Of a stretch of 64,000 nucleotides of DNA, positions 1 through 63,300 are shown piece after piece; positions within the stretch are counted from its first letter, which is position 1; each line of letters begins with the position of its first letter. The stretch is from NCBI GenBank assembly GCA_964650295.1, contig CAZYSY010000095.1, positions 74 through 64,073 on the forward strand. The letters are read 5' to 3'. The notes beneath the pieces were generated by a model. That model was given only the letters and a program-made list of their open reading frames with translations. It was not told the DNA's origin and made no database searches. The translations under genes were made by a program, and so were the position numbers. This DNA is from an uncultured Caldilineales bacterium. Lineage in GTDB: Bacteria; Chloroflexota; Anaerolineae; J102.

Positions 1-13
1 CTGGTTGGTGAAG

Positions 14-19000: not shown

Positions 19001-22000
19001 GGTATTGCAAGTCATGCCCGGCTCTGAGTTTGCCATTTTTGATGAAAGCCGTTTCACCATACGCCCGGGCGTACAGGCAGATATTGACGCTCTGATTCGA
19101 CATCTGGATGAGCGCAACCAGCTTCCCAAAACCATCGTCATTGCCTGGAATCGAGCCGACGCCGATTTCAACGAAGCCCGTCAGCGTGGCGTCACCACCC
19201 TTACCTCTCTGGCACGCGCCCTATATCAGCGCGGCATTACCCAACAACTACAGCTGGTTTTCATTGGCCATCACGCGCTCGACTTCTCCAGCCTTTCCCA
19301 AATCCATCCTTTTCAGGCCATGGCTCTGGGACCATGTAGGGTGGTCGCCGAGGAGTTCTCCAACATCCGGTGTCGTTTTCTCGATGTGACCATTCCTGAC
19401 GGCTCAGAAGCACGATTAAAATTGGCACGAAAAATCGCACTCGACATCCTCAACTCGCACGATCCTGTGGTGGTCTATCGAGGGGGGCGGCGCTGGGTGC
19501 AGACCTTCGAACCTTTGTCACCTCAGGAAAGCGCCGAGGCGCGTTTGCGTTCACGCGGCGTCTACCTCATCACCGGCGGTCTGGGCAACATGGGCTTGCT
19601 GTTTGCCCGCTATCTGGCCCAAAAGGTGCAGGCTCGACTGATTTTGGTGGGCCGGACGCCACTGCCCCCGCGGCAAGATTGGGAATCCTGGTTGGATCGC
19701 TCCCAACCTGACGATGTTCTCGCTCAACGCATTCGTACTGTGCGCGAGTTAGAAAGTCTGGGCGCGGAAGTGTTGACTTTTGCCGCCGACGTGGCGGATG
19801 AAAGCGCCATGCGTCATGTGCTGGATGCTGCCCTGGCCCACTTTGGCGTTCTGCATGGCGTACTGCACGCTGCTGGCGTGGTGGGCCTGGACGCGTTGAC
19901 GCCATTAGCCGAGACCGCCGAAGAAGTGTGCGCGCGGCATATCCGGGCCAAGGTGTTGGGCAGTCTCAATCTGGCGCATCTGCTGGAAGACCAGCATCTC
20001 GACTTCGTCTTGCTTCAATCCTCCCTTTCCACGGTGCTGGGTGGATACGGCATGACCGCTTATGCCGCGACCAACGCCTTCATGGATTCTCTGGCCGCGC
20101 GTGAATTTTACCGCACCGGCACCCCCTGGATGAGCATCGACTGGGATGGGTGGGCCTTTGATGACGGCGGCATGAACAATGTCTCTCTGGGCGCTTCTGA
20201 ACTGGCCATCTTACCTGATGAAGGGCTGGAAGTGCTGGAGCATCTTCTGGCGTATGACGATTTGCCTCAAGTGGTGGTCTCTACTGCCGACTTGCAGGCC
20301 CGGCTGCAAAAGCTGGAGTCGATGAAAACCGGGCCGGAAGAAAGTCTGGATGAGGATGAGGATGGGGGAGAGGATTCACCATCAGAGATGCATCCTCGCC
20401 CAGACCTCGACACGCCTTTTGTCGAACCCACCACTAAACTCGAAAAAGAAATCGCCAGTTTGTGGGAGCAAACCCTGGGCATTGCTCCGGTAGGGTTGCA
20501 CGATGATTTTTTCGCTCTGGGAGGACATTCGCTACTGGCCACCCAGATCGTCTCCCGTTTGAGGGACGCCTATAAGGTTAATCTGCCTTTGCGACGTTTG
20601 TTCGAAGCGCCCACCATCGCTGGGTTGGCCCGCCTGATCCAGGCCGAAAGTGAACAGGTCGAGGGGAAGCCAGCGTTTTCCTCGACCATCCAGCCCGTAC
20701 CCAGGCAGAAATACATGCCCCTCTCGCCAGGACAGCAGCGCCTGTGGTTCCTGGATCGACTGGACCCAGGCGCGCCGCTCTATAACAACTTTTCCGCCAT
20801 CAAACTGCAGGGTGAGATTTCAACTCCCTTGCTGGAGCAAAGCCTTAATCTCATTGTGCAGCGACACGAGATTTTGCGCACCACCTTTCACGAAGTCGGC
20901 GGCAAGCCGGTGCAACACATCCATGATGAGATGCCCATCCACCTGCCCATGCGCGATCTCAGCGAAATGTCGTCCGCGACTCGCGAAGAATGGATTCTGC
21001 AGTTGGCCGCGAATCACGCCCGTCAGCCCTTCGATCTCAGCCAGGGGCCCTTGCTGCGGGCTGAGGCGTTGCGCCTGGCTGCGGATGAACACATCATCTT
21101 TTTTACCATGCATCATATCGTCTCCGATGGTTGGTCGGTGGCAGTGATGCTGGAAGAGCTGACCGCCATCTATCGGGCGTTGGCCGCAGGCGTTGATCCC
21201 GATCTGCCTCCTTTGCCCATCCAGTATGTCGATTTCGCCGCCTGGCAATTGACACGAGTGCGTTCCGACTTTATCGCCGAACAAATCGCATGGTGGCAGG
21301 AGCAATTGGCCCATCTCGAGCCGCTGGAACTTCCTACCGATCGCCCCCGTCCACCTGTTCAAACCTCCCATGGAGCGGTGGAATGGTTCCAACTCCCCGA
21401 TGAAACCTATCGGCAACTGTCGCACCTGGCACAGCAGCAAGGCGTGACCACGTTTATGATATTGTCCGCGGGATTGGCCGCGCTTTTACATCGCTACACC
21501 ATGCAAGATGACATCACATTGGGCACGCCCATTGCCAATCGCACCCGGGTCGAAACCGAGGGACTTATCGGTTTTCTGCTCAACACCCTGGTGCTAAGGA
21601 CCGATTTGGCGGGGGATCCCAGTTTTGGCGAATTGCTGGCGCGGGTGAAGCAAACTACCATAGATGCGTATGAACATCAGGACGTTCCTTTCGAGATGTT
21701 GGTGGATGCATTACAACCCGCACGGGACATGAGCCGCACGCCTCTCTTTCAGGTAATGATTGACTTTCAGCAGGCGCAACTTTCCCGTTTCCAATGGCCT
21801 GGGCTCACACTCTCGCTACTACGCTACGACGATGCCACAGCCAAATTCGATATGACGTTTTCGTTGGAAGAATCTCCACAGGGCATTGCTGGTTCTCTCA
21901 ATTATAACACCGATCTGTTCGATAGGAGAACCGCGCGGCAGATGGTGAAACATTACATCCGTCTCCTCAAGACCGTAGTGAATTCGCCCGACCTGCGCAT

Positions 22001-23975
22001 CTCGCAATTGCCTTTGCTGGATGAAGATGAACTGGCTCGTCTGGACGCGTGGGGCGGGCTGGACGCGTCCGCGCATGATGCCGCCGCGCCCGATCTGCTG
22101 CAACAATTCGCGGCCCAGGTCGCTGCTCGTCCCCACGCCCAGGCCGTGGTGCAAGAGGATGTGGCGCTAACCTATGCGCAGCTCGAAGCCCGCGCCAACC
22201 AGATCGCCCATGCTTTGTTGAGTAGAGGCGTGAAGCCAGAGCAGGTTGTCGGCCTGTTCCTGGAGCGCACGCCCGAGCTCATCGCCGCCATCATGGGCGT
22301 CCTCAAAGCTGGCGCCGCCTTTGTCGTTCTCTCAGCCGATTATCCCGCAGAGCGGACGCGCTTCATCCTTCAGGACGCTCAGGTGAAGGTGGCGCTTGGT
22401 GAGCAACCAGCTTTCGCCGTGCCGGAACCTCAACCACCGGCCACTTTGCCCCAATACATCACCCCGGATGACACGCTGGACCAGCCATCTACGCCTCCGG
22501 CACTCACCCCCTTCCCCAAAAGTGCGGCTTACATCATCTACACCTCGGGCACTACGGGCCAGCCCAAGGGGGTTGTGGTGGAGCGGGATGCGCTCTCCCG
22601 GCACATCGCCAGCATTGCCCGAGCGTTTGGCGTCACCTCTGGAGATCGGGTTTTGCAATTTGCGGCGCTCACGTTTGATCAAGGCTTGGAGCAGGTTTTT
22701 GTCACGCTCACCACGGGCGCAACCCTGGTGATGCGTGGGGATGAGGTGTGGCCTCCGGAGGATTTTGCCCGGGTGGTGCAGCAAAATCAGCTCTCGGTCA
22801 TCAATTTGCCTCCAGCCTATCTGAGTCAAGTGATGCGCGTTTGGGGAGAAGAAAATCCTCGTGATTTGGTGGGTGACCTGCACCTCATCATTTCGGGCGG
22901 CGATGCTCTGCCTCGGGAGATTGTGAAAATTTGGCGGCGGGTGTTGCCTGAAGTGCGACTCATCAATGCTTATGGCCCCACCGAGGCTGTCATCACCGCC
23001 ACCACCCACGACATTCCTACGCATGCTGTCGAGGATGAGGCTTTGTTTGGCGCTTTGCCCATCGGACGGCCTGTCTCTCCGCGCACTGCAGTCATTCTCG
23101 ATGACTATGGCAATCGCACCCCCATTGGTGTGCCCGGCGAATTGTGTTTGGGCGGCGCTGCCCTGGCCCGGGGCTATCTCCACCGCCCCGCCATCACCGC
23201 CCAGGCTTTTCAGCCAGATGTTTGGAGCAGCAAGGCGGGAGCGCGGCGCTATCGCACTGGTGATCTGGCTCGCTTCCGTGCGGATGGCGTCATCGAATTT
23301 CTGGGACGCATCGATCGTCAGATAAAGATGCGAGGTTTCCGCATCGAGCCCGGAGAGATCGAAGCGGCGTTGCATCAACATCCGGCCATCGATGTGGCTG
23401 TGGTGCAGCTGGTCTCGCGGGAGCCTGATGATAAAATTATGGCAGCCTACATCCATCGCGCTTCAGGAGATTTGCCCTCTGTGGCGCAGTTGCACGAATA
23501 TCTCAAAACGCGTTTGCCCCATTACATGATCCCTGGCGTTTTTGTGCCGCTCACAGAGCTTCCACTGACCCGCAGCGGCAAAATCGACTATCGGGCGTTA
23601 CCCCCGGTGGATGAAGGACACCGTTTGCACCACGGCCAGGAGTATGTGGCTCCGTCAACGCCTGTGGAAGAGGACTTGGCCCGTATCTGGGCTGAGGTGC
23701 TAGGCCTGGAGCAGGTTGGCGTCCACGACAATTTCTTCGAGCTGGGCGGGCATTCATTGCTGGCTACCCAGATCGCCTCTCGCATGCGTGAGCTTTATGA
23801 TGTGGAAATTCCTTTACGCTCCCTGTTTGCATCGCCCACCATTGCCCAGCTGGCTGCAATCATCACCGAAGCCATGCTGGAGCAAGCGACCGATGAGGAT
23901 ATGGCTGATTTGTGGGAGCAACTGGATGATCTTTCTGAGGAAGAATTGATGCGTCTTTTGCAAGAGGATGATTGA
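16089..23975 (+). CDS. Hybrid PKS-NRPS: KS-AT-KR-CP (M4) fused to C-A-PCP (M5)
   Basis: 2628-aa ORF preceded by 'aggag' 7 nt upstream. Acidic N-terminus 'MNDSGFSESHDYNDQEIDHGYD'. KS 'QTACSTSLVAVH'. AT 'GHSIGEY' and 'SHAFHSAMM'. KR 'YLITGGLGNMG' and 'YAATNAFMD'. PCP-like carrier 'FFALGGHSLLATQIVSRL'. C 'HHIVSDGWS'. A 'YIIYTSGTTGQPKGV'. PCP 'FFELGGHSLLATQIASRM'. Acidic tail 'LSEEELMRLLQEDD'. Confidence 0.95.
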   Translation: MNDSGFSESHDYNDQEIDHGYDIAVIGLAGRFPGAETIEEFWQNLIQGAESIQFFTREEMEAAGVDSKLLEHPQYVNAGGHLDGADRFDSSFFGFYPREADILDPQHRIFLEVAWEAIERAGYNPDIYKEPIGVFAGMSMGSYLYFNLMHNRLIRKTVQPYQLPMSSDKDFLTTRVSYKLNLKGPSVDVQTACSTSLVAVHLACQSLLNYECDMALAGGVSIRIPQKSGYLYQEGGILSPDGHCRPFSADARGTVSGEGAGVVVLKRLEDALRDGDTIYAVIKGTAINNDGAGKVGYTAPSVDGQAKVIASAQVLAGVAPFEISYIEAHGTGTMLGDPIEIEALSQVFREHTDEKQFCAIGSVKANIGHLDAAAGVAGLIKTVLALQHRQLPPSINFTAPNPQIDFAGSPFYVQEKLTDWTTDRLPRRAGVSSFGMGGTNAHAILEEAPQRPASGPSRAWQLITLSARTPAALEQITDNFAIYLQQHPQVNLADAAYTLKLGRKTFKYRRMLVAQTSAEVIAAIENRDGERISDAVEEFEGRPVAFMFSGQGAQYVNMARDLYQTEPIFAEQVDRCAHLLLPHLQLDIRSLIFPPAEKEDEASEKLRQTQYTQPALFIIEYGLAQLWMHWGVQPAAMIGHSIGEYVAATLAGVFSLEDALALVSARGKLMQALPGGAMLSVQLSEAEIRPWLETDSRLALAAINTPGLVAVSGPFDAIDTLEQALEQAGHGVRRLHTSHAFHSAMMQPILEPFAQLVAQAAPKPPTTRFISNVTGDWITAEQATDPTYWARHLRQTVRFADGVGQLLADSVMALLEIGPGNTLTRLAGWHPAAGKTRIILASLRHPRTQQQDQAFLLRTLGQMWLAGISLDWQAFYENERRYRIPLPTYPFQRQRHWIKPDMRELENVGGEMELMLSKRQPPETWLYAPSWRRAPLPGNLPRGDHISAPWLIFRDELGDPMLMTLLQAGYPVLQVMPGSEFAIFDESRFTIRPGVQADIDALIRHLDERNQLPKTIVIAWNRADADFNEARQRGVTTLTSLARALYQRGITQQLQLVFIGHHALDFSSLSQIHPFQAMALGPCRVVAEEFSNIRCRFLDVTIPDGSEARLKLARKIALDILNSHDPVVVYRGGRRWVQTFEPLSPQESAEARLRSRGVYLITGGLGNMGLLFARYLAQKVQARLILVGRTPLPPRQDWESWLDRSQPDDVLAQRIRTVRELESLGAEVLTFAADVADESAMRHVLDAALAHFGVLHGVLHAAGVVGLDALTPLAETAEEVCARHIRAKVLGSLNLAHLLEDQHLDFVLLQSSLSTVLGGYGMTAYAATNAFMDSLAAREFYRTGTPWMSIDWDGWAFDDGGMNNVSLGASELAILPDEGLEVLEHLLAYDDLPQVVVSTADLQARLQKLESMKTGPEESLDEDEDGGEDSPSEMHPRPDLDTPFVEPTTKLEKEIASLWEQTLGIAPVGLHDDFFALGGHSLLATQIVSRLRDAYKVNLPLRRLFEAPTIAGLARLIQAESEQVEGKPAFSSTIQPVPRQKYMPLSPGQQRLWFLDRLDPGAPLYNNFSAIKLQGEISTPLLEQSLNLIVQRHEILRTTFHEVGGKPVQHIHDEMPIHLPMRDLSEMSSATREEWILQLAANHARQPFDLSQGPLLRAEALRLAADEHIIFFTMHHIVSDGWSVAVMLEELTAIYRALAAGVDPDLPPLPIQYVDFAAWQLTRVRSDFIAEQIAWWQEQLAHLEPLELPTDRPRPPVQTSHGAVEWFQLPDETYRQLSHLAQQQGVTTFMILSAGLAALLHRYTMQDDITLGTPIANRTRVETEGLIGFLLNTLVLRTDLAGDPSFGELLARVKQTTIDAYEHQDVPFEMLVDALQPARDMSRTPLFQVMIDFQQAQLSRFQWPGLTLSLLRYDDATAKFDMTFSLEESPQGIAGSLNYNTDLFDRRTARQMVKHYIRLLKTVVNSPDLRISQLPLLDEDELARLDAWGGLDASAHDAAAPDLLQQFAAQVAARPHAQAVVQEDVALTYAQLEARANQIAHALLSRGVKPEQVVGLFLERTPELIAAIMGVLKAGAAFVVLSADYPAERTRFILQDAQVKVALGEQPAFAVPEPQPPATLPQYITPDDTLDQPSTPPALTPFPKSAAYIIYTSGTTGQPKGVVVERDALSRHIASIARAFGVTSGDRVLQFAALTFDQGLEQVFVTLTTGATLVMRGDEVWPPEDFARVVQQNQLSVINLPPAYLSQVMRVWGEENPRDLVGDLHLIISGGDALPREIVKIWRRVLPEVRLINAYGPTEAVITATTHDIPTHAVEDEALFGALPIGRPVSPRTAVILDDYGNRTPIGVPGELCLGGAALARGYLHRPAITAQAFQPDVWSSKAGARRYRTGDLARFRADGVIEFLGRIDRQIKMRGFRIEPGEIEAALHQHPAIDVAVVQLVSREPDDKIMAAYIHRASGDLPSVAQLHEYLKTRLPHYMIPGVFVPLTELPLTRSGKIDYRALPPVDEGHRLHHGQEYVAPSTPVEEDLARIWAEVLGLEQVGVHDNFFELGGHSLLATQIASRMRELYDVEIPLRSLFASPTIAQLAAIITEAMLEQATDEDMADLWEQLDDLSEEELMRLLQEDD
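16152..17435 (+). other. Ketosynthase domain, M4 (accepts an aminoacyl/peptidyl chain from the upstream PCP)
   Basis: 'DIAVIGLAGRFPG', 'QTACSTSLVAVH', 'EAHGTGTMLGDPIE', 'KANIGHLDAAAG', 'FGMGGTNAHAILEEAP'. Confidence 0.9.
17718..18715 (+). other. Acyltransferase domain, M4, malonyl-type
   Basis: 'VAFMFSGQGAQYVNM', 'GHSIGEYVAATLAG', 'TSHAFHSAMM'. Confidence 0.85.
19558..20160 (+). other. Ketoreductase catalytic subdomain, M4
   Basis: 'GVYLITGGLGNMGLLFARYL', 'LHAAGVVGLD', 'GMTAYAATNAFMD'. The region 18870-19550 looks like the KR structural subdomain. There is no DH or ER motif. Confidence 0.85.
20440..20640 (+). other. Carrier domain, M4 (PCP-like sequence in a PKS module)
   Basis: 'LWEQTLGIAPVGLHDDFFALGGHSLLATQIVSRL'. 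Confidence 0.8.
20712..22010 (+). other. Condensation domain, M5
   Basis: 'MPLSPGQQRLWFLDRLDP' and 'FTMHHIVSDGWS'. Confidence 0.9.
22096..23605 (+). other. Adenylation domain, M5; code DQENIGAITK (unassigned; nearest recalled code is Orn DMENLGLINK)
   Basis: Anchors: 'LTFDQGLEQ', 'SVINLPPA', 'LIISGGDA', 'INAYGPTEAVIT', 'SGKIDY'. Confidence 0.8.
23668..23865 (+). other. PCP domain, M5
   Basis: 'IWAEVLGLEQVGVHDNFFELGGHSLLATQIASRM'. Confidence 0.85.
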
Positions 23976-23986
23976 GAGTTGATTCT

Positions 23987-26900
23987 ATGAGCAAGAAGCT
24001 GCAAGATTTGTCTCCCGAAAAACGGGCGCTTTTAGAAAAATGGCTGAAGAAGAAAGCCATGGCCCGACGTCAGGCCCAAGCCATCACCCCGCGCCCTGAT
24101 CCCAATGAATATCCCCTTTCGTTTGGACAGCAGCAGTTGTGGTTTTTCGACCAACTGGAGCCAAACAGCTCCCTCTACAACATTTCGGGGGCAGTGCGAT
24201 TGCGCGGGACGTTAGATCGCCAGGCCTTGGCCCGTAGTATGAATCAGGTGGTGCAACGGCATGCGGTGCTGCGGGCCCGTTTTATTACAAAAGATGGCGA
24301 ACCTCGCCAGATCATCGCACCGGAACTTTCACTCCCACTGGCTTATGAGGATTTGCGCCATCTGCCTCCGGCGCAACGCGAAGCCCAGGCGCTGGCGATG
24401 GCCACCACCGAGGCTCAACGTCCTTTCGATCTGGCCAATGGCCCTTTGCTGCGGGCCATGCTGTTACAACTGGACGCACAGGAGCACATGGTGGTTGTCT
24501 CCATGCACCACATCGTAGCGGATGGCTGGTCGATTGGCATCTTCTTGCGAGAGATGGCTTTGCTCTATGACGCCTATGTGCAGGGACGTAATCCCGACCT
24601 GCCCTCTCTGCCCATCCAGTATGCAGATTACGCCCACTGGCAGCGGCAGCAGTTGCAAGGGGCGAAGTTAGATGAGCAGCTACAGTACTGGGAAAAACAA
24701 CTCTCTGGCATTCCTCCCCTGCTAGAACTACCCACCGATCATCCCCGCTCCGCGATTCTTTCGCATCAGGGCTCGCATTACCAGTTTCGACTTCCATCTC
24801 AGCTGACCGCTCAACTCAAGGCGTTGAGTCGCTCCCAGGGGGTCACCTTTTTTTCCACCTTGCTGGCGGCATATAGCGTTCTTCTTCATCGCTACTCCCG
24901 TCAGGACGATTTGGTGGTGGGGACGCCCTTTGCCCATCGCGACAAGACCGAGCTGGAAAACCTCATCGGCTATTTCGTCAATATGCTGGCTTTGCGCACC
25001 GATCTCGCTGGCAATCCCACCTTCCGCGAATTGTTGGGGCGGGTGCATCAGGTGGTGCAGGAGGCGCAAGAGCATCAGGATTTGCCCTTTGAGATGTTGG
25101 TTTCCCACATACAGCCCCGTCGCGATCCTGGTGTTAGCCCCATTTTTCAGGCAGCGCTGGTATTTCAGCAGGCATTGCCCCGGTTGCAGCTGGGAGAATT
25201 GGAGATGGAGCTGATTGCTACCGATATTGGCACGGCCAAGGTGGACCTTTCGCTGGTGGTGGAGGAGGATGCCGAGGGGATGCGCTGCGCTTTTCGCTAT
25301 CGCACGGACCTATTCGCCGCCAGCACCATGGCCCGCATGGCCCGCCATTTTATCCATCTGCTGCAAAGCATTGTCCAAAATCCCGATACGACTGTGGCTC
25401 GTCTACCCTTGATGGGGGCCGAGGAGCGGCAATTGTTGTTGGAAAAGTGGCGGGGATTTTCCATAGATTACGGGCCAACGTTAGCCATCCAGCAGCTTTT
25501 CGAAGAGCAAGCCGCACTGACGCCAGAGGCTGTCGCTCTGGAATTTGTTCCCCTTTCCCCAACCTGCCCTTATCCTCCGACTTATATGACGTATGCCGAA
25601 CTCAACCGGCGCGCCAATCAACTCGCTCATTATTTGCGTGATCTGGGGGTAGGGCCCGAGATCCTGGTGGGGCTGCAAATGCAACGCTCACCCGAGATGC
25701 TGGTGGGAATGTTGGGCATTCTCAAGGCGGGAGGCGCTTATTTGCCCCTAGACCCTGATTATCCAGCGGAACGCATTCGTTACATGATCGATGATTCGGG
25801 CGTGCAGATCGTCGTGACCAACATGGCTGTCACGAGCGAGGATGCTTCTGGCATACACTATGTCCATTGTCATGCTTCTGAGCTGGATAGCCAGCCTGAG
25901 ACCAATCCTGAGCCACTCACTCGCCCTGAACATCTGGCGTATGTCATCTACACCTCCGGCTCCACTGGTCAGCCTAAGGGTGTGGAGGTGTTGCAGCGGG
26001 GGCTCATCAATCATGCTCGCAGTCTGGCGAATATTTATGATTTGGGCGTGGGAGATCGGGTATTACAGTTCATTACCCTGAGTTTCGACGCCGCAGGTGA
26101 GGAAATTTATCCCGCGCTCATCTCTGGCGCCACGTTGGTGCTCATCAGCTCCGCGGCTGAGCTGGTAGGCGGGCGCTTGTTGCACTTCTGCGCTGCCCAT
26201 GACATTCATGTGCTGCATTTGCCAGCGTCTATTTGGCATCAGAGCGTGGATGACATGGCAGGCGCAGCACCGCTGGATTTATCTTTGCGAGTGCTGCTGG
26301 TGGGAGGCGAAAGGCCAGATCTAACCCGTCTGCGCACCTGGGCCCGGCTGCACCGTCATCCCGCCCGCTTCATCAACGCCTATGGCCCAACCGAGAGCAC
26401 CATCACTGCACTCTGGTTCGAGACTGCCAGCACACCTCAGATGGTAGACGCGCTGGAACTGATTCCGGTAGGACGGCCACTGCCTAATGTTCATGTTTAT
26501 ATTTTGGATGAAGCAATGCAGCCTGTACCTATTGGCGTGCCCGGCGAGCTGTATATTGGTGGTGTGGGCGTAGCTCGAGGATATTTGGGCCGACCACAAC
26601 TCACTTCCGAACGTTTTCTGCCCGATCCTTTTCTCTCATATCCCGGGGCCCGAATTTACAAGACTGGCGATTTGGCCCGCTGGTTGCCCAATGGTTACAT
26701 CGAATTCATGGGGCGGGTGGATGAACAGGTGAAAATCCGCGGCTTTCGCGTAGAGCTGGGTGAGATCGAAAGCGCTTTGGTCCTTTTATCTGCAGTGAAA
26801 GAGGCGGCTGTAACAGCGCGCGTGGACGATGGGCATCAACGTCTGGTGGCGTATGTCGTTCCTGCCCATGATTCGCTCGTCATCGATCAGGTGCGAGAAG

Positions 26901-29900
26901 CGTTGCGTCAGCGCCTACCCGAATACATGATTCCCGCGGCTTTTGTGCTGTTGGATGAATTGCCGCGGCTGCCCAATGGCAAGATCGACCGCCATTCTCT
27001 GCCTGAGCCAGAGGGTGAACGCCAGGTGGGGCAGGATTTCGTCGCGCCGCGCGATGCCTTGGAATTGTATTTGGCAGACATGTGGCGAGCGCTGTTGGGG
27101 GTGCGTGAGATTGGCGTAAACGACAATTTCTTCGAGTTGGGCGGCAATTCCATTCTGGGAGCGACATTTGTCAATCGTTTGCAGGATCGGTTGGGCGAAT
27201 ACATCTATCTGGTGGCGTTGTTCGACGCTCCCACCATTGCGCAACTGGCCGCTTATCTACGAGAAAACTATCCTATAGGCGTGGCGCGCATGTTGGGTGA
27301 GGATGCTGACGCGGCAGCTCAAACCGTGGCTCGGGCCGCACACGCTCAGGTGGTCACGCCGGCAGACCTGCGCCGGCTACGCGAGCTCATCGTTCCCCTG
27401 CCGCCCCGGCCCGCATCACTGGCGGGTGGGCCAAAAAATCCCCGGGCTGTGTTCATCCTTTCCGCACCTCGGTCTGGCTCCACGCTGCTGCGCGTCATCC
27501 TGGGAGGCAACCCCCGTCTTTTCGCTCCTCCTGAGTTGCAATTGCTCAATTACAACACCCTGGCCCATCAGCAGGCCGCATTGGGCAATGAGCGGGATGA
27601 ATTCTGGCTGGATGGCATCTTGCGGGCTATTATGGAGCTGCGTCAGTGTGATGTGGAGGAGGCCCAAGCCATCTTCCGTTCCTATATCGAACAGAATCTG
27701 ACCATTAAACAATTCTATGGCGTGCTCCAATCCTGGTTGGGCGACCGCATCTTTGTCGATAAAACGCCCAACTATGCTCTGGATGAGCAGGTGCTGCGGC
27801 GGGCGGAAGAGGATTTTGCCGATCCTCTTTACATCCACCTCGTCCGTCATCCATATGCAGTAATTCCCTCCTTCGAGAAAGCCAAGCTCCACGTCTTCTA
27901 TCCTCCCTTTTTCAAAGGAGAACATCCATTTACTCCTGGCCAACTGGCTGAACTCATCTGGCTCGTCAGCCATCAAAACATCCTCAGCTTCTTGCAAGAT
28001 GTGCCAGAGCAGCGGCAACATCGCGTGTATTACGAAGACTTGGTGCAACATCCTTATGAAACAATCAGCAACCTATGCAGTTTCCTCGGTGTCGATTTTC
28101 ATCCCGACATGTTGGAGCCGCAAAAGAACCCCAAGCGACGTATGACCGATGGCATCCATCCTCTGGCGCGCATGGTGGGCGATGTGCGTTTCTTTGAGCA
28201 CAAAGGCATTGATGGCCGTAACGCATATCGCTGGATGGAGAAGCTCGAGGTGGATTATCTCAGCGAGATGACCTGGCAAATGGCCAGCGATTTGGGGTAT
28301 GAGCGTTTACGAGGTTGGCCCAGGCCCGGCGAAAGCCAGGCGCTGGATGCGATCACGCCGCAGCCGCGGGTGGTGGACCAGGAAACTGGCGTTGTCGAAA
28401 ATCTGCCACTCTCCTTCGGACAGGAACGCCTCTGGTTTTTGCATCAGCTGGATCGGGAAAGCGCCAGCTATAACATGCCTTTGGCGTTGCGCATGAGGGG
28501 AGCGTTGCATGTTGCCGCTCTGGAAGAGAGCCTGAACCGGGTGATCCATCGGCATGAGGTGCTCCATACAAGTTTTCCTGCCATCCAGGGGCGCTCTGCC
28601 CTGGCACTGCATCCTGACCTGCATCTGACCTTGGTGGCAGAAGATCTGAACCCGTCGGCAGATGTCATGGCCAGCGCCCAGGAGCTGACTTCCGGTGAGG
28701 CGCAACGTCCTTTTGATTTGGAGCATGGGCCTTTGGTGCGGGCGCGACTTTTGCGCCTGGGGCCCGAGGATCATCTTTTGCTTCTCACCATGCATCACAT
28801 CGTGGCTGATGGCTGGTCCATGGGGGTGTTCGTGCGGGAGGTGGCGGCTTTTTATCGGGCGCTGGTGGCGGGGGAGGCAATAAACCTGCCTGAGCTGCCA
28901 GTGCAATACGCAGATTTCGCCTTTTGGCAACGCCAATGGTTGCAACGAGCGGCAGCGCAACGCCAATTGGCTTATTGGAAGCGCCAACTGGCTGGAGCTC
29001 CCGCACTGTTGGAACTTCCCACCGATTTTCCTCGCCCCCAGGAGCCTACCGAGCGGGGCACTTTCGAGACATTTGCATTGCCAGCGACTCTGGTGGAGCC
29101 ATTGCGCGATCTGGCCAATGAGCAGGGAGCTACCCTGTTCATGGCATTGGTCGCCCTTTTCGAAGTCCTCCTTTATCGCTATTCTGGACAAGAGGATTTC
29201 AACCTGGGCACGCCTGTGGCCGGGCGCACCCGCGCCGAGTTGGAGCCGCTCATCGGATTTTTCGTCAACACCCTGGTGTTACGGGCTGATCTTTCGGGCC
29301 AGCCCGACTTCCGGCAACTATTGGCCCGGGTGCAGGATGTGACCGTGCAGGCTTTCGCCAACCAGGATCTGCCCTTCGAGATGCTGGTGGACGCGTTGCA
29401 GCCGCAGCGGGCCCTGGGACATTCCCCTTTGTTTCAAGTTATGTTTGTGTTGCAAGACGCACCTACCGACGCGTTGCAGTTGCCCGAGTTGACCATCTTC
29501 CCTCAACCCGTAGACACAGGCGCGGCCAAGTTCGATCTCACCCTCTCCATCACCGACATGGGGGGGGAGCTGCGCGGCCTGTTGGAATACAATACAGACC
29601 TTTTTCATCAACAGACCATCCTCCGTATGATTCAGCATCTGCGTCTGCTATTGGAGGGCGTGGTGGCCAACCCGGATCAACCTGTATCCACGTTGCCCAT
29701 GCTCACTCCAGCCCAGAAACGCATGATTTTGCACGACTGGAATGGCCCCGAGGTTGAATATCTCCATTTGCGCCCCGTTCATGAATTGATCGCTGCTCAG
29801 GCCCAACGCACGCCTGAGGCCACTGCGCTCATCTTCGCTGGTCCTGAAAGCGCTCAGACCAAAACCATGAGCTATCGCGAGCTGGATCGCCGCGCCAATC

Positions 29901-32900
29901 AGCTTGCGCATCATCTGCGCACTTTGGGGGCGGGCCCCGATGTACTGGTGGGTTTGATGATGCCGCGTTCTTTGGAGATGATGGTGGGGTTGTTGGGCAT
30001 CCTCAAGGCCGGCGCTGCATATGTGCCCATCGATCCTGACTACCCTGGGGAGCGCATACGTTACATGCTGGATGATGCCGGGGTGCAGGTAGTGGTTTCC
30101 AACCTTCTTCTCGAGGATGACGCTTCTTCCCGTCTACTGCATGTTGTCGATCCCGCGGATGAGACGCTTTTCTCTTATCCTGAGACGCCTCCCAACATCT
30201 CCATCACCCTGGATAATTTGGCTTACGTCATTTATACCTCGGGCTCCACCGGTCAGCCCAAAGGGGTGATGATACCTCACCGCGGGGTGGCGAATCATGC
30301 GTTGGCCCTGAAAGAAATATATGACTTAAGGCCCGATGATCGCATGTTGCAGTTCATCACGCTGAGCTTCGATGCTGCTGGCGAGGAGATTTATCCAACA
30401 CTCATCAGCGGAGCATCTCTGGCGCTCATTCCTTCGGCCACCGATCTCATGGGTGCTGCCCTCTTCCGCTTTTTGCAGGAACACGACATCACCATCGTGC
30501 ATTTTCCCGCCGCGGCCTGGCATCAGAGCTTGGAGGCGTTTTTGGCTCAGGGCGGTCGCTTCCGCGGTAAATTACGCTTGTTGCTGCTGGGCGGAGAACG
30601 GCCAGATTTGCAACGCTTGTGCCAATGGGGGGATGAACTGTCGCAACCTCTGACCTTCATCAATGCTTACGGACCCACCGAAACCACCATCACCGCCACC
30701 CTTTACGCCACCGCCTGTCATAGTCACTCTCTGGCGCATCTCGATAACGTGCCCATTGGGCGACCGATTGCTAATGTCCGCGTCTATGTGTTGGATGAGT
30801 GGCAGCAACTCGCACCCATCGGCGTGCCCGGAGAATTGTACATTGGCGGTGCGGGGGTGGCCCGGGGCTATCTCCACAGGCCTGATCTCACTCCGGCCAG
30901 TTTCCTACCCGATCCTTTTAGTTCCGTGCCGGGGGAGCGCATCTATCGCACCGGCGATCTGGTGCGTTGGTTGCCTGATGGCAATCTGGAATTTTTGGGT
31001 CGCGTGGATGATCAGGTCAAGATCCGGGGATTCCGCGTGGAACTGGGCGAGATCGAGATCCATCTCAAGGCTCATCCGCAGGTGGCTGATGTTGTGGTGC
31101 AGACTCGCAAGAGCATTTCTGGCCATAATCGTTTGGTGGCTTATGTGGTGACTCGGGATGAGGATGTTTCTGCCGCACACCTGGCCGCACACTTGCGCCA
31201 GCGTTTACCCGAATACATGATCCCTTCTGCATTTCTCTTCTTGTCTGCGCTTCCCTTGTTGCCCAATGGCAAGGTGAATCGCCGGGCTTTGCCCGAGCCT
31301 GAATTCAATCGTCCCGAGCTTTCTGCCGAGTACGTGGCCCCGACCACGCCTTCGGAGAAGATTCTGGCCAACATCTGGACGGAGTTGCTGGGGTTGGAAC
31401 AGGTGGGCGTACATGACAATTTTTTCGAGCTTGGTGGTGATTCGATCCTCAGCATTCAGGTTATCGCCCGGGCGCAGCAAGCGGGCCTGCATCTGCAACC
31501 CAAACAGATTTTCCAACACCCCACCATCGCTGGCCTGGCCGCGGTGGCCATGCCCATCCAACCCATCCACGCGGAGCAGGGCGTTGTCGTTGGCGATGCG
31601 CCTCTGACGCCAATCCAGCATTGGTTCTTCCACCTGGATTTGCCAAATCCTCACCATTGGAACCAGTCCATCCTGCTGGAGGTGGATGAGCCGCTGGCAG
31701 AGGAACCCTTGCGGCAGGCTTTGGCTGCCTTGCTGAAACATCATGATGCCCTGCGGTTGCGTTTTCGACGTGAAGAAGATGGCTGGCGACAATGGATCGA
31801 GGATATGGAGGACGACATCCCCCTGGAGGTGGTGAACCTGGCGGACGCACCTGACGCGTCTTTGGCCGATCTCATCCAGCAGAGATCAGCCCAGGCCCAG
31901 GCCGGACTTCATCTGGAACATGGCCCCATGCTGCAAGTGATATATTTCAATCTCGGGCTGCGACGTGCGCATCGTCTGTTGCTGGTGTTGCATCATCTGG
32001 TGGTGGATGGCGTTTCCTGGCGCATCATCACCGAAGACTTACAGAGTGCTTATGCCCAGGCTGTCCAGGGAGATCAGGTTGTTCTTCCTCCCAAAACCAC
32101 CTCTTTCCGTTATTGGGCTCAGCGGTTGCAAGAGTATGCGGCCAGTGAGGATTTGAAGGCGCAAATGGAGTTCTGGCTCCAGGCAGTTGGCGCAGCGCCC
32201 TCTGCTCTGCCTTTGGATTTCCCTGGCGCTGAAAATACCGAGGCTTCGGCGCAATCCTTGAGTCTGGCATTGAGCGCCCAGGAAACCGCAGTTCTCTTGC
32301 AGGATATGCCCGCAGTTTATGGCAGCGATGTGAATCAGGCCTTGCTGACAGCGCTGGCCCTGGCTTTGGGGCGAGATGGCGCTGGCTCCGTACTCATCGA
32401 GCAGGAGGGACATGGCCGCGAAGACCTGTTCTCTGATGTGAATCTTTCACGAACCGTGGGATGGTTTACCTCCATCTACCCCCTGCATCTCGCTTTGCCC
32501 TCAGGCCCTCGCACCTCCGGCCCTCAGCGTCGTGCTGCGGGGTTGGGGCCAGGAGCTGGTTTGGGCGCAGCTGCACAGAAGCGAAGATCTGAGTTTTCGG
32601 CAGATGATTTGGTGGATGCGTTGCAGGCGGTGAGCGTCCAGGTTCGGGCCTTGCCTCAACATGGCCTGGGTTACGGACTGTTGCGCTATTTGCATCCCGA
32701 TCCCCAGGTGCGGGCGCAGCTGGCCGCATTGCCCCAGGCCCAGGTCAGCTTCAACTATTTGGGCCAGTTCGATGCTGGTACGCGACAGGATGACGTTTTT
32801 CGTCTGGCCGCGGAAGCGCGTGGACCTGAACGCGACCCTCGCGGGACACGTCAGCATGTGCTGGAAATCAGTGCCAGCATTGTCGCAGGCGAGTTGCTCA

Positions 32901-57300: not shown

Positions 57301-60300
57301 GAGCGGATTAGTGAGAAGGAGTTTGTTTCTCCTCGCACTCCCACCGAAGAAATGATGACCGGTCTCTGGCGCGAGGTGTTGGGGTTGAGCCACATCAGCG
57401 TCTTGGATGATTTCTTCGAGTTGGGGGGGCATAGCCTGCTGGCAACGCAGCTGCTTTCCCGCATCCGCGAAAGTTTTAATATCGAATTGCCTTTGCGCGT
57501 TATCTTCGAATCCTCTATCCTGGCCGATTTGGCGGAGATGGTCGATGTGGCCCAACGTAGCGCCGCTGGCCTGGCTCCTCCTCCCATCCGGCCTGCCCCC
57601 CGCCAGGGTCCCCAACCTGTTTCTTTTGCCCAGCAACGCTTGTGGTTCCTGGATCAACTCGAGCCCAATAGTCCCTACTACAACATCCCTGAGGGTATGC
57701 GGGTTCGGGGCCCCCTGGATGTGAATGTCCTGGAACGCTGCCTGAACGAAGAGGTGCGACGGCATGAGTCCTTACGCACCACCTTTAGCACGGTGGATGG
57801 CAAACCTGTGCAAGTCATCCATCCCCAACTCTCGTTGCATGTTTCTGTCGTCGATCTTAGCCATCTGCCTCGCGCAAAGCGAGAGGCGGAAGTCATGCGG
57901 TGGTCCCGCGAAGAGGCCCGCACACCTTTCGTGCTTTCCGAAGGGCCTTTGCTGCGGATGCGGGTGTTGCGGCTGGCCGCAGATGAGCATGTCATCCTCA
58001 CCACCATGCACCACATCATCAGTGATGAATGGTCGGCCAATGTCTTTAGTCGTGAGATTGCAATTCTTTACGACGCCTTTTCTCATGGTCGACCTTCACC
58101 CCTGCCCGATCTACCTATCCAATATGCAGATTTTGCTCGCTGGCAGCGGGAATGGTTACAGGGCGAAGTGTTGGAGGCGCAATTAGCCTATTGGCGTGAA
58201 CAATTGCAGGGCGCTCCCGCCTTACTGGAACTGCCCACCGATTATCCCCGTCCTCCCATTCAGACCTATGCGGGCGATTATATGGCCTTCAAGCTTTCGC
58301 CCCAGCTCAGCGCGGACATCAAGCAGCTGTTCCAGCAAGAGGGCGTGACGCTGTTCATGGGATTGTTGGCCGCGTTCAAGACCTTACTCTATCGCTATTC
58401 GGGGCAAGAAGATATTGTAGTGGGCACTCCCATCGCCAACCGTACCCGGGCCGAACTGGAAAATATCATCGGCTTTTTCGTCAACACCCTGGTGTTACGC
58501 ACCCATCTGAGTGGTGAACCCACATTTCGAGAGGTGTTGCAGCGGGTGCGCGAGACCTCCTTGGGCGCTTATGCGCATCAGGATACGCCTTTCGAGATGT
58601 TGGTGGACGAGCTACAGCCGAAGCGAGACCTGAGCCATTCTCCGCTGTTTCAGGTGATGTTTGTCATCCAAAACGCTCGGCCGGGCGAAGCTCAGGTCAT
58701 GTCTGATTTGTTGCTAACGCCGCTGGAGGCTCATAGCGGCGCCGCCAAGTTTGATTTGACCATGTTCGTGCTGGATGAGCCAGATGGCCTGAGCGGCGCT
58801 CTAGAATACAACACCGATCTCTTTGCCGCCTCCACCATCGAGCGGATGCTGGCACATTTTCAAAATCTGTTAACCGCGTTGGTGGCTGAACCAGATCTGC
58901 CCATCTCCCGCCTGTCGCTGCTGAGTCAAGATGAGCGACATTACCTTTTGCATGAATGGAACAATACTGCCGCACCCTATCCTGACCTCTGCGTGCATGA
59001 TCTAGTGCAGGCGCAGGTGCAGCGCACTCCGCAAGCTGTCGCAGTCACTGATGGCGAAAGTGTTCTGACCTACGCCCAACTTGACGCTCAGGCTAATCAG
59101 GTAGCTCATTTTCTGCGCAGTCAGGGGGTGGGGCCAGATGATCTGGTGGGAGTCATGATGCACCGAACTCCCGATGTTGTGTCCTCTCTTCTGGGAGTGC
59201 TGAAGGCTGGGGCCGCGTATGCGCCTATGGATCCCACCTATCCCGCAGAACGCATTCGCTACATGATTCAGGATGCAAATATTCGAGTATTACTCATCGA
59301 TGGTGATGTGCGACGGGATGCTGGTTGGTGGGACGTGCTGCAAGCAGCATTGGCCGATGTATTGGTGATCTCTCTGGATCATCCCGCCATCGTCTCTCAG
59401 CCCACGACCAGTCCCGCCCCCCTGGCTGCGCCCCACCATCTGGCTTATGTGATCTACACCTCGGGCTCCACCGGAAGACCCAAAGGCGTGATGTTGGAGC
59501 ATCGCAATGTGGTCAACTATCTCACTTGGTGTCAGCATGCTTATCCCGTCGGCCAAGGCGTGGGGTCCCCGGTTCACTCCTCCATCTCCTTCGATCTTAC
59601 AGTCACCAGCATATTCACTCCCCTGATCAGCGGCGGAGCGGTGCGTCTGGTGAGGGAGGATGCAGGCATCGAAGGTTTGGGCGAGGCCATGTTGGAAAGC
59701 GACGGATTCAGTCTGGTCAAGCTCACTCCCGCCCATCTCGAGTTGTTGAGCCAACAAATATCGCCCCAACAGGCGGCGACGTGCACCCGCGCCTTTATCA
59801 TTGGCGGCGAAGCCCTGATGCCGGGACATATTGCCTTCTGGCGTGAACATGCGCCCGAGGTGAAGTTGGTGAATGAGTACGGTCCCACTGAGACCGCGGT
59901 GGGATGTTGCGTTTATACAGCATCGCCTGATGTACGTTACGAAAGTTCCATTCCCATTGGTCGCCCCATCATCAATGCTCGTCTCTATGTGTTGGATGAA
60001 TATCTTGAGCCTGTGCCCATTGGCGTGCCAGGTGAGCTTTACATCGCGGGCGCAGGCGTGGGCAGAGGCTACCTCCACCAGCCAGACCTGACCGCAGAGC
60101 GATTTTTGCCCGATCCCTTTAATTCTGAACCTGGCTCCCGCATGTATCGCACTGGCGATCTGGCCCGTCATACTATTCATGGCGAACTGGAATTCCTGGG
60201 ACGGATCGATTATCAAGTGAAAGTGCGAGGCTTCCGTATTGAACTGGGCGAGATTGAGGCCAACCTGGCAGAATTCCCTGGCTTGCGTGATGTAATCGTG

Positions 60301-63300
60301 TTGGCGCGCGAAGATACGCCAGGACAAAAGCGTCTGGTGGCCTATGTGCGTGCAGCGGCGGGAACAGAGGTTAGACTGTCTGAGCTTCGGGAATTTTTAC
60401 GAGATCGCCTGCCCGAATACATGATTCCCGCGGCCTTTGTGGTGCTGGATGAATTTCCTCTGACGCCCAATGGCAAAGTAGACCGCAAAGCCTTGCCCGC
60501 GCCTGATGTCCGTCGAGATGAATTGGATAAACCCTATGTGGCCCCACGCACGCCGGTGGAGGAATTTTTGGCGCAACAGTTCCAGGAAGTGTTGGGCGTG
60601 GAACGCGTCGGCATTCATGACAACTTCTTCGAACTGGGGGGCGATTCATTGCAAGCCGCAACGTTCATCAATCGTCTCCAGGAGAAATTCCAGGTGGCCA
60701 CTCGTGTGCGTTCAATCTTCTTGGCGCCCACTGTGGCTGAACTGGCCTATTACCTGCAAGAATATTACCCGACCATTGTCTCCCAAATCGCCCACGGCGA
60801 ACAAGAAACCATCCCCGATGAGCTGCGTCATGAATTGCTGCAAGCCACCACCGTCATCGATGGCGATGTTGTGGCCGCTTTTCGGCAATTGATTCCTGCT
60901 GCGCCGCAAAGGGAGACGCTCGCGCCAGCAGGAAAGAACCCTCCGGCAGTGTTCATCATCTCCCCGCCCCGTTCTGGCTCAACCCTGTTGCGAGTGATGT
61001 TGGCGGGGCATCCTCAGCTCTTCGCTCCTCCTGAGCTCGATTTACTCTCCTTCGCCACCATGTCCGAGCGACGACGCGCCTTTCGCGGGCGTTACGAATT
61101 CTGGCTAGAAGGTGCAATCAAGGCCGTGTCTGAGGCCCGCGGCATTTCTGTGGCTGAGGCGGAGCAATTGCTCAGCCAGTATGAGGCCCAGGACATGAGC
61201 ACCCGGCAGTTTTACGCCTTGCTGCAGGAATGGATCGGCGAACGGTTGTTGGTGGACAAGACGCCCGTCTACGCGCTGAACCTGGATGTTTTGCAGCGGG
61301 CGGAAATAGATTTCGAAAACGCCCTTTACATCCATCTGGTGCGCAATCCCTACGCCACCATTTATTCCTTCGTCGAAGCCAGATTGGATAATCTATTTTG
61401 CCGTTTCGAGCATCCATATAGCCGTCGCGAACTGGCTGAGCTCACCTGGATTGTCAGCCATCAAAACATCTTGCACTTCCTGGCAGATATCCCCGACTCC
61501 AGGCAACATCGCATTTATTACGAGGATATGGTGAGACACCCCCAGGAGGAAATGCAGCGCTTAAGCGATTTTCTTGGCATCACCTACCACCCAGACATGA
61601 CTCGTCCCTATCTGGGCGATCGTATGACCTCGGGCCTAAAACCCGGCATGCAGATGGTGGGAGATTTCAAGTTCTATTTACACAAAGGCATCGACGCTAA
61701 CGCCGCCAACCGGTGGCGTAAGCGACATATCGGGAACTTCCTTAGCGGTGTGGGCGTCGAACTGGCCCGCAGCCTGGGTTATGATGAATCAAGCCTCTTT
61801 GTGCCGCCAGTGGGTAGCATCTCCACCTGGCTACCCATCCAGCCCGCGCCCAGAGATGGTGATTTACCCCTTTCTTTTGCCCAGCAGCGCCTGTGGTATC
61901 TGGATCAGATCGAGCCCGGCAACCCCTTCTACAACATGCCCACCGCAGTGCGATTGCAAGGGGAGTTGGATGTGGCGGCGCTCTCCGCGGCCATCAATGA
62001 GATCGTACGCAGGCACGAAACCTTACGCACCAGCATTATCACCGAGGTGGGAGAGCCCCGACAAGAGATTTCTCCCCACGCTCAGGTAGTCTTGCGAGTC
62101 ATCGATCTTTCTTTCCTGCCTGCACCTGAACGTGAGGAGCAAGCCCAGGCCATGGCCGAAGAAGAAGCCGAGACGCCTTTTTATCTGGATCATGGTCCCC
62201 TATTCCGGGCGCGGTTGCTACGCCTGGCCACAGAGGATCATGTGCTGTTACTCACCTTCCACCACATCATCTCCGATGGTTGGTCGATGCGGGTATTTGT
62301 GCGAGAGCTTGCCACCCTCTATCGCTCATTCCGGCAAGGAAAACCCTCCCCTCTCCCCGAGCTGCCCATCCAGTACGCCGATTTTGCCTACTGGCAGCGA
62401 CAATGGTTTCAGGGGGAGGCATTGGAAGCGGAGCTAAACTATTGGCGACAACAACTGGAGGGGGCGCCTGTCTTGCTGGAGCTTCCTAGCGACCATCCTC
62501 GCCCTCCAGTGCAAACCTATCATGGCGCCGCCTTATATTTCTCGGTTCCCCCAAACCTGGTGCGGCGTCTGGAAGCATTGAGCCAACGTGAAGGCGTCAC
62601 CCTATTCATGACGTTGCTGGCCGCATTTCAGACCCTGCTGCACCGCTACTCCCGTCAGGATGATATCTGCGTCGGCGCTCCCATTGCTAATCGTCCCCGC
62701 GCCGAGTTGGAGTCACTCATCGGTTTCTTCGTCAACACCCTAGTAATGCGCACCGATCTCTCGGGCGCTCCCAGCTTCAGCGAATTGTTGCAGCGGGTGC
62801 GCGAGACCGCCATCGGCGCATACGATCATCAAGATTTGCCCTTCGAATATCTGGTGGATCATCTGGGCGTGGAGCGCAGCCTGAGTCATAGTCCCCTCTT
62901 CCAAGTCATGTTCACTCTGGATTCAGCCGCGGCCACAACTCAGGAAGTGAGACTTTCAGAACTCACCATCCGCGCGGTGGAAACCGATGTCACCACCGCT
63001 CGCTTCGATCTGGTGCTTTCGATGATTCAGGATGGTGATAGTCTGGCCGGGGCCATGGAGTACAACACCGATTTGTTCGAGGAGGAGACCATTCAGCGCA
63101 TGGTGGAGCATTTCCTCACTCTGCTGGAGGACGTTGCGGTTCGCCCCAACGCGTCGATCGAGCATCTGCGGCTGATGTCTACAGCTGAGATAGCACAGGT
63201 GCGGGCCTGGAATGCAACCGAGAGCGACGTCCCTCTGCATGAGCCGGTCTTCTTGCGCATCCAACAGCATGCACGAACACAACCCCAGGCAGTGGCTGTG

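Follow-up and report, generated by a model that had tools for sequence, protein, structure and literature searches.

In CurM of the curacin A pathway and in the olefin synthase (OLS) of Synechococcus PCC 7002, a sulfotransferase (ST) domain stands directly behind an acyl carrier protein (ACP) and ahead of a thioesterase (TE); the carrier holds a beta-hydroxyacyl chain, and release of the product is accompanied by decarboxylation. Within nonribosomal peptide synthetases (NRPSs), embedded STs have been reported beside the glycerate-loading domains of the starter module in the cyanopeptolin synthetase OciA of Planktothrix and the dysinosin synthetase DysB, and the products hold sulfated glyceric acid (PMC2533009, PMC6520454). 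In the literature searched, embedded NRPS STs are known only from such glycerate starter modules. Stand-alone tailoring STs of peptide pathways, such as SulN (sulfazecin) and StaL (A47934), also sulfonate nonribosomal peptides with 3'-phosphoadenosine 5'-phosphosulfate (PAPS), and SulN works on a carrier-bound intermediate, but they are separate proteins of other ST families and are not fused to a dedicated carrier (PMC11298585). Here we analyzed a 64,000-nucleotide stretch of DNA from an uncultured Caldilineales bacterium (the window; positions 74-64073 of the 67.5-kb contig C95, CAZYSY010000095.1), in which two NRPS proteins, O4 and O8, each contain a cassette made up of a peptidyl carrier protein (PCP), a linker and an ST (27056-28303 and 60556-61785). 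The two cassettes belong to elongation modules 3 and 12 of a lipopeptide assembly line, behind adenylation (A) domains for amino acids. We consider it likely that both regions are members of one widespread and coherent carrier-ST didomain, that they represent two old lineages of it, and that the ST performs PAPS-dependent sulfation in cis.

The carrier-ST didomain is composed of a specialised PCP, a linker of ~50 residues whose second half is a conserved helix, and a PAPS-dependent ST of the CurM/OLS family. As in CurM and OLS, the ST lies directly behind its carrier in the assembly line, but the carrier in the window is loaded with an amino acid by an A domain instead of holding a beta-hydroxyacyl chain, and a condensation (C) domain after the ST continues the chain where CurM and OLS release it. 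The CurM placement was therefore found in neither copy, each having an A domain upstream and a C domain downstream. The OciA/DysB arrangement, in which the ST also lies inside an NRPS protein, was likewise not seen: no FkbH domain was found in the ST proteins of the window, and both STs follow an A-PCP pair in elongation modules, whereas those of OciA and DysB belong to the starter module. Among the relatives of the cassette, FkbH-annotated proteins with a carrier-ST unit were nevertheless present.

Alignment of the two cassettes gave 47% identity over 416 residues from end to end (E 6e-134), well above what chance would give, and Pfam identified a PP-binding and a Sulfotransfer_3 domain in both proteins. 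The sequence strings listed in the first-pass annotation were all located at their positions, namely GGNSILGATFVNRLQDRLG and GGDSLQAATFINRLQEKFQ in the PCPs, the tails AQLAAYLRENYP and AELAYYLQEYYP, and (G)PKNPRAVFILSAPRSGSTLLRV and GKNPPAVFIISPPRSGSTLLRV ahead of the STs; the check also verified GGHSLLATQ for the ordinary PCPs, GGHSLLLAKV for the first NRPS module and GGDSILSIQV for the PCPs ahead of epimerisation (E) domains. The same annotation had estimated that about half of the positions are identical along the whole unit. This holds for the PCP (47%) and the ST (52%), but the linker is only 18% identical.

PCP subtypes defined by the downstream partner are established, with 'GGHSL' carriers preceding C domains (PCP-C) and 'GGDSI' carriers preceding E domains (PCP-E), and the helix-2 region varies with the domain that receives the phosphopantetheine (Ppant) arm. 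The ST-type PCP is a further case beside these two, a third partner-specific subtype with its own signature and C-terminal tail. Past the Ppant serine, the consensus of ST-linked PCPs is GGnSI.GAvLINRLQe.LGEIVh, while C-linked PCPs follow GGHSLLATqlvSRlReaFGVELP and E-linked PCPs follow GGDSILSIQVIARA. The ST-linked signature comprises GG(N/D)S(I/L)xxAxx(I/V)NRLQ, FDAPT or FLAPT, and a tail LAxYLxxxYP, which appears in the family conservation profile as LAaYL.e.YP.AVaRl.G. By analogy with the tuning of the GGDSI subtype to epimerisation domains, the ST-type carrier appears to be tuned to the downstream ST. No description of an ST-specific PCP subtype or of a mid-line PCP-ST-C module was found in the literature searched, where the STs that came up were those of CurM/OLS, OciA and DysB and stand-alone enzymes.

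Within the window, the ST-linked PCPs share 47% identity, and the O8 copy shows 53-54% identity to two ordinary PCPs. A tree of the 17 window carriers placed the ST-linked pair in a polytomy apart from the main clade of PCPs, while the three pre-E PCPs formed one clade (support 100/99). As this tree is too short to decide the matter, external sequences were required. The 416-residue cassette was run in a profile-free scan against 1.84 billion cluster representatives, which yielded 2202 proteins at E<=1e-30, and the best 120-150 matches of each search were analyzed. The best 150 of the 2202 (representatives of 50%-identity clusters) were all long NRPS/PKS (polyketide synthase) proteins, nearly all of which cover cassette residues ~2-416 as a single stretch. 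In a FastTree phylogeny of 327 PCPs, all 151 ST-linked PCPs lay inside one clade of 159. An IQ-TREE phylogeny of 74 PCPs placed every one of the 30 ST-linked PCPs, the two of the window among them, on a branch with 96/97 support together with three ST-less PCPs. The grouping of the ST-linked PCPs that the first-pass annotation had predicted thus stood with external sequences and did not appear in the window-only tree.

Profile hidden Markov models (HMMs) gave the same picture. To limit ascertainment bias, a second set was gathered by PCP search alone (116 proteins with 462 PCPs) and scored with two HMMs from the first set; 25 of the 25 ST-linked PCPs favoured the ST-type HMM by 25-43 bits, and the generic HMM was favoured by 432 of the 437 others. 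For the window carriers, scored with these HMMs, whose training sequences all came from outside the window, the ST-type score exceeded the generic score by 34.0 bits for the O4 ST-linked PCP and by 10.1 bits for that of O8, compared with -13.6 to -41.6 bits for the 12 other PCPs. Among 381 proteins, an ST-type carrier lay directly upstream of 288 of 291 ST domains, and the three exceptions were ST domains at truncated N-termini. The clade, the HMM scores and these counts bear out the proposal of a distinct PCP subtype before the ST. Whether this signature is always followed by an ST had also been asked: STs follow an ST-type carrier in the 288 cases above, but 13 ST-type PCPs were found without an ST. 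In these 13, a C or TE domain comes directly next, the linker is shortened, and the proteins mostly contain complete cassettes elsewhere, which looks like loss or deletion of the ST. ST-less carriers with the YLxxxYPxAVAR tail were observed in P0159 (residue 1020), P0153 (2405), P0154 (3800), P0176 (1809), P0017, P0036 and others.

In the linker, the conservation profile of the family passes from a variable stretch to a conserved element, rvD.a.va.lR.LIpPLpP. The two window copies follow this pattern, with 4% identity in the variable first 24 residues and 26% in the conserved last 19. The R.LI.PLPP element that precedes KNPPAVF reads RRLRELIVPLPP in O4 and takes the weaker form FRQLIPAAPQ in O8. 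An identity above background had been expected for the linkers; the observed 18% between the copies is lower than the median for O4 within the family (26%). AlphaFold placed helices at cassette residues 73-79, 84-97 and 102-111, with a mean predicted local distance difference test (pLDDT) score of 94 for residues 101-110. Because the conserved second half is modelled as a confident helix, the 'linker' would in part be an N-terminal extension of the ST.

The ST domain matched the solved structures PDB 4gbm (E 4.7e-67) and 4gox (E 3.9e-57) in HMMER searches. The AlphaFold model of the whole cassette (pLDDT 86.6, predicted TM-score 0.86) was compared with the same two structures by Foldseek, which gave a TM-score of 0.93 for both and root mean square deviations of 2.2 and 1.8, respectively; tyrosylprotein sulfotransferases were the next nearest fold family. 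The likeness to CurM and OLS suggested earlier is confirmed by sequence and fold as membership of that family, the comparison being made on the ST part. On alignment to the CurM ST, PRSGST, PPEL, DKTP and RHPY/RNPY were intact in both copies. From the CurM ST, we take PRSGST to be the 5'-phosphosulfate-binding (5'-PSB) loop and RHPY to belong to the 3'-phosphate-binding (3'-PB) region; the PPEL glutamate and the DK(T/S)P lysine are likewise present in both copies. The only segment of the model with low confidence (pLDDT below 50) was cassette residues 375-384 (window 28178-28207). It corresponds to the MVGDVRFFEH region, which differs between the two cassette sub-lineages, and in the model it may represent a mobile active-site flap.

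The first-pass annotation had also proposed that carrier and ST are inherited as one unit and that this unit is portable, and both ideas are supported, the first across hundreds of synthetases by the HMMs, the trees and the upstream-carrier counts. The three closest PCP relatives of a unit included its nearest ST relative in 31 of 60 units; the corresponding numbers were 20/60 for the linker, 15/60 for the upstream A domain and 17/60 for the downstream C domain. Traits of the PCP and the ST also co-vary between sub-lineages: in both O8 and the Cytophagia locus L016, the PCP has RSIFLAPT and the ST has MVGDFKFYLHK together with a three-residue deletion at FYPPFF, and O4-type cassettes share VALFDAPT, HVFYPPFF and MVGDVRFFEH. 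The unit is evolutionarily portable because its neighbours on both sides change many times. On the upstream side stand A domains as well as PKS modules (KS-AT-KR-CP-ST-C and KS-AT-CP-ST-TE, where KS is ketosynthase, AT acyltransferase, KR ketoreductase and CP carrier protein), and some relatives are FkbH-annotated. The 291 STs are followed by TE (132, the order of CurM and OLS), C (129), the protein end (24), KS (1) or other domains (5), and the cassette tree requires at least 6-10 switches of the C/TE label. Two or three cassettes per cluster are common in metagenome-assembled genomes (MAGs) of Anaerolineae and Calditrichota. Tandem PCP-ST-PCP-ST arrangements were observed in P0009 and P0061, and in locus L007 of an Anaerolineae MAG three successive modules all finish with an ST, after which comes a protein that terminates in a TE. 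Terminal modules of ~1700 residues with the order C-A-PCP-ST-TE (P0276-P0375) form a very large class, mainly from Acidobacteriota (Pyrinomonadaceae, Thermoanaerobaculia and Blastocatellia); they often have Tyr-like or Ser-like A codes and are an NRPS analogue of the ACP-ST-TE ending of CurM.

Two other accounts of how the cassettes arose were weighed against a single coherent didomain family. Ordinary PCPs might have adapted repeatedly to a neighbouring ST, the signature being a product of interface selection and not of shared descent. The discriminating residues are indeed located in the tail and around helix 2, regions expected to touch the partner domain, ST-type PCPs without an ST exist, and the PCP is short, so its trees are weak (FastTree support 0.38). 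However, the ST-linked clade is well supported in the careful IQ-TREE analysis, nearest neighbours agree for PCP and ST twice as often as for ST and A or ST and C, and the sub-lineage traits of PCP and ST vary together. The same carrier type also occurs behind A domains, behind PKS KS-AT(-KR) modules and in FkbH-annotated proteins, as movement of a unit predicts, and we regard such convergence as improbable. Local duplication, in which one PCP-linker-ST unit of 1.2 kb was copied within the cluster into a second A/C junction, had been one of the readings in the first-pass annotation; it agrees with the presence of two copies of equal domain order and 47% identity in one cluster, and with the O8 ST-linked PCP being the best in-window match of the O4 PCP. 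The phylogeny of 63 whole cassettes contradicts it. The O4 copy grouped with P0182 and P0181 (86% identical) and then with P0221 and P0010, and the O8 copy with P0135 (56%), P0063, P0009 and P0102, in different, strongly supported clades. Forcing the two cassettes to be sisters cost 146 log-likelihood units and was rejected by the approximately unbiased (AU) test (p = 5.7e-7), although on the 73-column PCP alignment the sisterhood of the two PCPs was not rejected (p = 0.2). Each copy ranked only 121st or 70th among the other's relatives in a family of 154, the linkers are less alike than the family median for O4, and the flanking domains are not each other's nearest: the A domains are 44% identical with different codes, and the downstream C domains, at 51.5%, are no closer to each other than either is to the remaining C domains in the cluster. 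Duplication within the cluster is accordingly very hard to credit, and the sequence relationships indicate that the two cassettes descend from two deep lineages of the family and not from each other.

For the didomain reading, the following course of events can be proposed. The A domain would load the residue of the module onto the ST-type PCP, the in-cis ST would most likely use PAPS to sulfate a hydroxyl group of the aminoacyl or peptidyl intermediate tethered there, and the C domain that comes next, an ordinary one, would hand the sulfated intermediate on. That the ST sulfonates an intermediate on its own cognate carrier, as had been suggested for the cassettes, is plausible and agrees with the observations. 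Several observations weigh against this reading. The codes of the two ST modules in the window are Asn-like (DLTKIGEVGK) and unassigned (DAEHLGAITK), without an obvious hydroxyl, and the latter code recurs, identical or nearly so, in two ST-less modules of the cluster; DAEH(L/M)G(A/L)ITK is present in the A domains at 25487-27031, 29780-31330 and about 49350-50880, with an ST only behind the first. The sulfate acceptor may therefore need a hydroxylase that acts in trans and is encoded off the contig. The signature is not strictly diagnostic, given the 13 ST-less carriers, and the 73-column PCP tree could be partly driven by selected interface positions. Broad distance correlations among A, PCP, linker, ST and C do not favour the PCP-ST pair (0.57) over the ST-C pair (0.65), only the nearest-neighbour agreement being informative, and the frequencies given here are biased since the protein sets were assembled by similarity to the cassette or its PCP. 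In the literature searched, no biochemical study or product of any mid-line PCP-ST unit was found.

The fate of the sulfate was considered in light of the A codes. These were extracted with a GrsA fragment as the ruler; the ruler itself returned DAWTIAAICK, and codes recognisable as Phe, Thr, Asn and Ser were obtained, which shows that the code register is right. Before 61 mid-line STs, we found 25 Ser-like, 8 Tyr-like and 8 DAEHxG codes and 20 that were other or unassigned, and Tyr-like codes preceded 19 of 84 ST-TE pairs. The ST lineage follows the A-code class, which changes 28 times on the ST tree compared with 66.8 after shuffling, and the nearest ST below 65% identity has the same A-code class in 34 of 75 cases, where 14.5 were expected. 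The enrichment of Ser-like and Tyr-like codes, this correlation and the embedded STs of the cyanopeptolin and dysinosin synthetases fit O-sulfonation of the residue on the own carrier, but the correlation is not proof of it because co-inheritance of whole modules confounds it. A rival that stays in play, chiefly at Ser modules and ST-TE termini, is that the sulfate serves as a leaving group, as in CurM, instead of being kept as a decoration, for example in beta-elimination of a Ser/Thr-O-sulfate to a dehydroamino acid in mid-line or, among the C-A-PCP-ST-TE relatives, in an elimination with decarboxylation. The ST shares 40-50% identity with the activating STs of CurM and OLS, Ser-like codes dominate the mid-line modules, and a TE often follows the ST as in CurM; yet the sulfate of a phenol cannot eliminate and Tyr-like codes are frequent, the embedded STs characterised in the cyanopeptolin and dysinosin pathways go with products that bear a sulfated residue, and the window has ordinary downstream C domains and modules that are Asn-like and unassigned, not Ser or Thr. 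We consider the leaving-group role rather unlikely overall.

The didomain might also be an autonomous plug-in whose chemistry depends on its context, a joint reading that we think unlikely as a whole. Under it, the sulfate ester would be retained on Tyr-type or other hydroxyls, Ser/Thr modules would use sulfate as a leaving group to give dehydroamino acids in mid-line, and C-A(Ser)-PCP-ST-TE termini would undergo a CurM-like decarboxylative elimination to a C-terminal enamide. The unassigned and Asn-like residues of the window would be hydroxylated in trans and then sulfated, like mutremdamide A, a sulfated sponge depsipeptide that bears a beta-sulfated Asn. Finally, the lack of an obvious hydroxyl acceptor in the two loaded residues would fit STs that are inactive relics serving as structural spacers. 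The intact PRSGST loop, PPEL glutamate, DKTP and RHPY/RNPY motifs, the 86% identity of the O4 cassette to its nearest homologues and the strong column conservation across the family make this highly improbable, and in-cis sulfation by the carrier-ST didomain remains the reading that we prefer.

Partner-specific carrier subtypes are a main reason for failed domain swaps in NRPS engineering. A carrier that is specific for the ST and travels with it provides a defined exchange unit (PCP, ~50-residue linker and ST; ~1.2 kb), which evolution has already placed behind A domains and PKS modules and ahead of C, TE and KS. The ST-type PCP signature also offers a simple means of locating, in clusters that are still uncharacterised, the positions at which the peptides are probably sulfated. 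Among the matches listed, clusters with the signature come from Chloroflexota, Calditrichota, Bacteroidota and, most of all, Acidobacteriota.

The coordinates of the cassettes and their neighbours are given in Table 1. Nine ORFs (open reading frames), all in the same direction, make up one FAAL-PKS-NRPS line (FAAL, fatty acyl-AMP ligase).

Table 1. Open reading frames of the assembly line and domains around the two carrier-ST cassettes, in window numbering (DH, dehydratase; ER, enoylreductase)
Feature	Position	Strand	Description
Line ORFs 1-2			FAAL; then ACP-KS-AT-DH-ER-KR-ACP
Line ORFs 3-4			KS-AT-ACP-C-A-PCP; then KS-AT-KR-CP-C-A-PCP
Line ORF 5 (O4)	23972-33097	+	C-A-PCP-ST-C-A-PCP-E
Line ORFs 6-8			C-A-PCP-C-A-PCP; C-A-PCP-C-A-PCP-E; C-A-PCP-C-A-PCP
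Line ORF 9 (O8)	from 54328, end past window	+	C-A-PCP-C-A-PCP-ST-C-A-PCP-E
A domain, first ST module	25487..27031	+	From domain HMMs; code DAEHLGAITK, substrate not predictable
ST-type PCP, copy 1	27050..27274	+	Ppant serine 27149-27151; GGNSILGATFVNRLQ; C-terminal tail AQLAAYLRENYP
Linker, copy 1	27275..27430	+	~52 residues; variable first half, then conserved helix-forming VTPADLRRLRELIVPLPP at about 27359-27409
CurM-type ST, copy 1	27431..28303	+	PAPS 5'-phosphosulfate loop PRSGST 27467-27484; Pfam PF13469
C domain after copy 1	28397..29731	+	Ordinary, LCL-like; HHIVADG intact
A domain, second ST module	58993..60525	+	ORF from 54328; code DLTKIGEVGK, Asn-like
ST-type PCP, copy 2	60547..60771	+	Ppant serine 60646-60648; GGDSLQAATFINRLQ; tail AELAYYLQEYYP; more divergent member of the subtype
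Linker, copy 2	60772..60930	+	18% identity to linker of copy 1
CurM-type ST, copy 2	60931..61785	+	PRSGST 60967-60984; nearest listed relatives P0135 (56%) and P0063
C domain after copy 2	61843..63180	+	Ordinary, LCL-like; HHIISDG

The window has a GC content of 56.7%, and the MAG comprises 3.15 Mb and is 78% complete. The best relatives of the cassette among the matches listed came from Caldilineae (75%) and Anaerolineae (66%) MAGs, best hits that point to a probable Chloroflexota source. The last NRPS protein terminates in an E domain, and ~600 bp further on lies a gene resembling a LivJ-type amino-acid-binding lipoprotein (C95 66568-67533, beyond the window). No TE was found on the contig, neither a TE nor a further C domain was found elsewhere in the MAG, and none of its other NRPS contigs holds a continuation of the line, whose end must be either absent or encoded at another place. 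The MAG carries an adenosine 5'-phosphosulfate (APS) kinase, in line with the proposed sulfation, and three stand-alone Sulfotransfer_3 genes outside the cluster (C12:16750-17484, C68:8937-9641 and C42:3671-4300), one of which lies ~7 kb from an ORF of 578 residues that contains the APS kinase (C68:16760-17209).

Further observations concern the carriers and C domains of the line. The carrier of the KS-AT-KR module (20400-20650, in the ORF 16089-23975) resembles a PCP (FFALGGHSLLATQIVSRL) and precedes a C domain; its type tracks the downstream partner and not the type of the upstream module. The C domain of the Asn-like ST module (57550-58960, in the ORF from 54328) has the active-site motif HHIISDE instead of HHxxxDG. 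Two other C domains (36758 and 51496) have HHIVSDA, and the first NRPS C domain has HHIVVDL.

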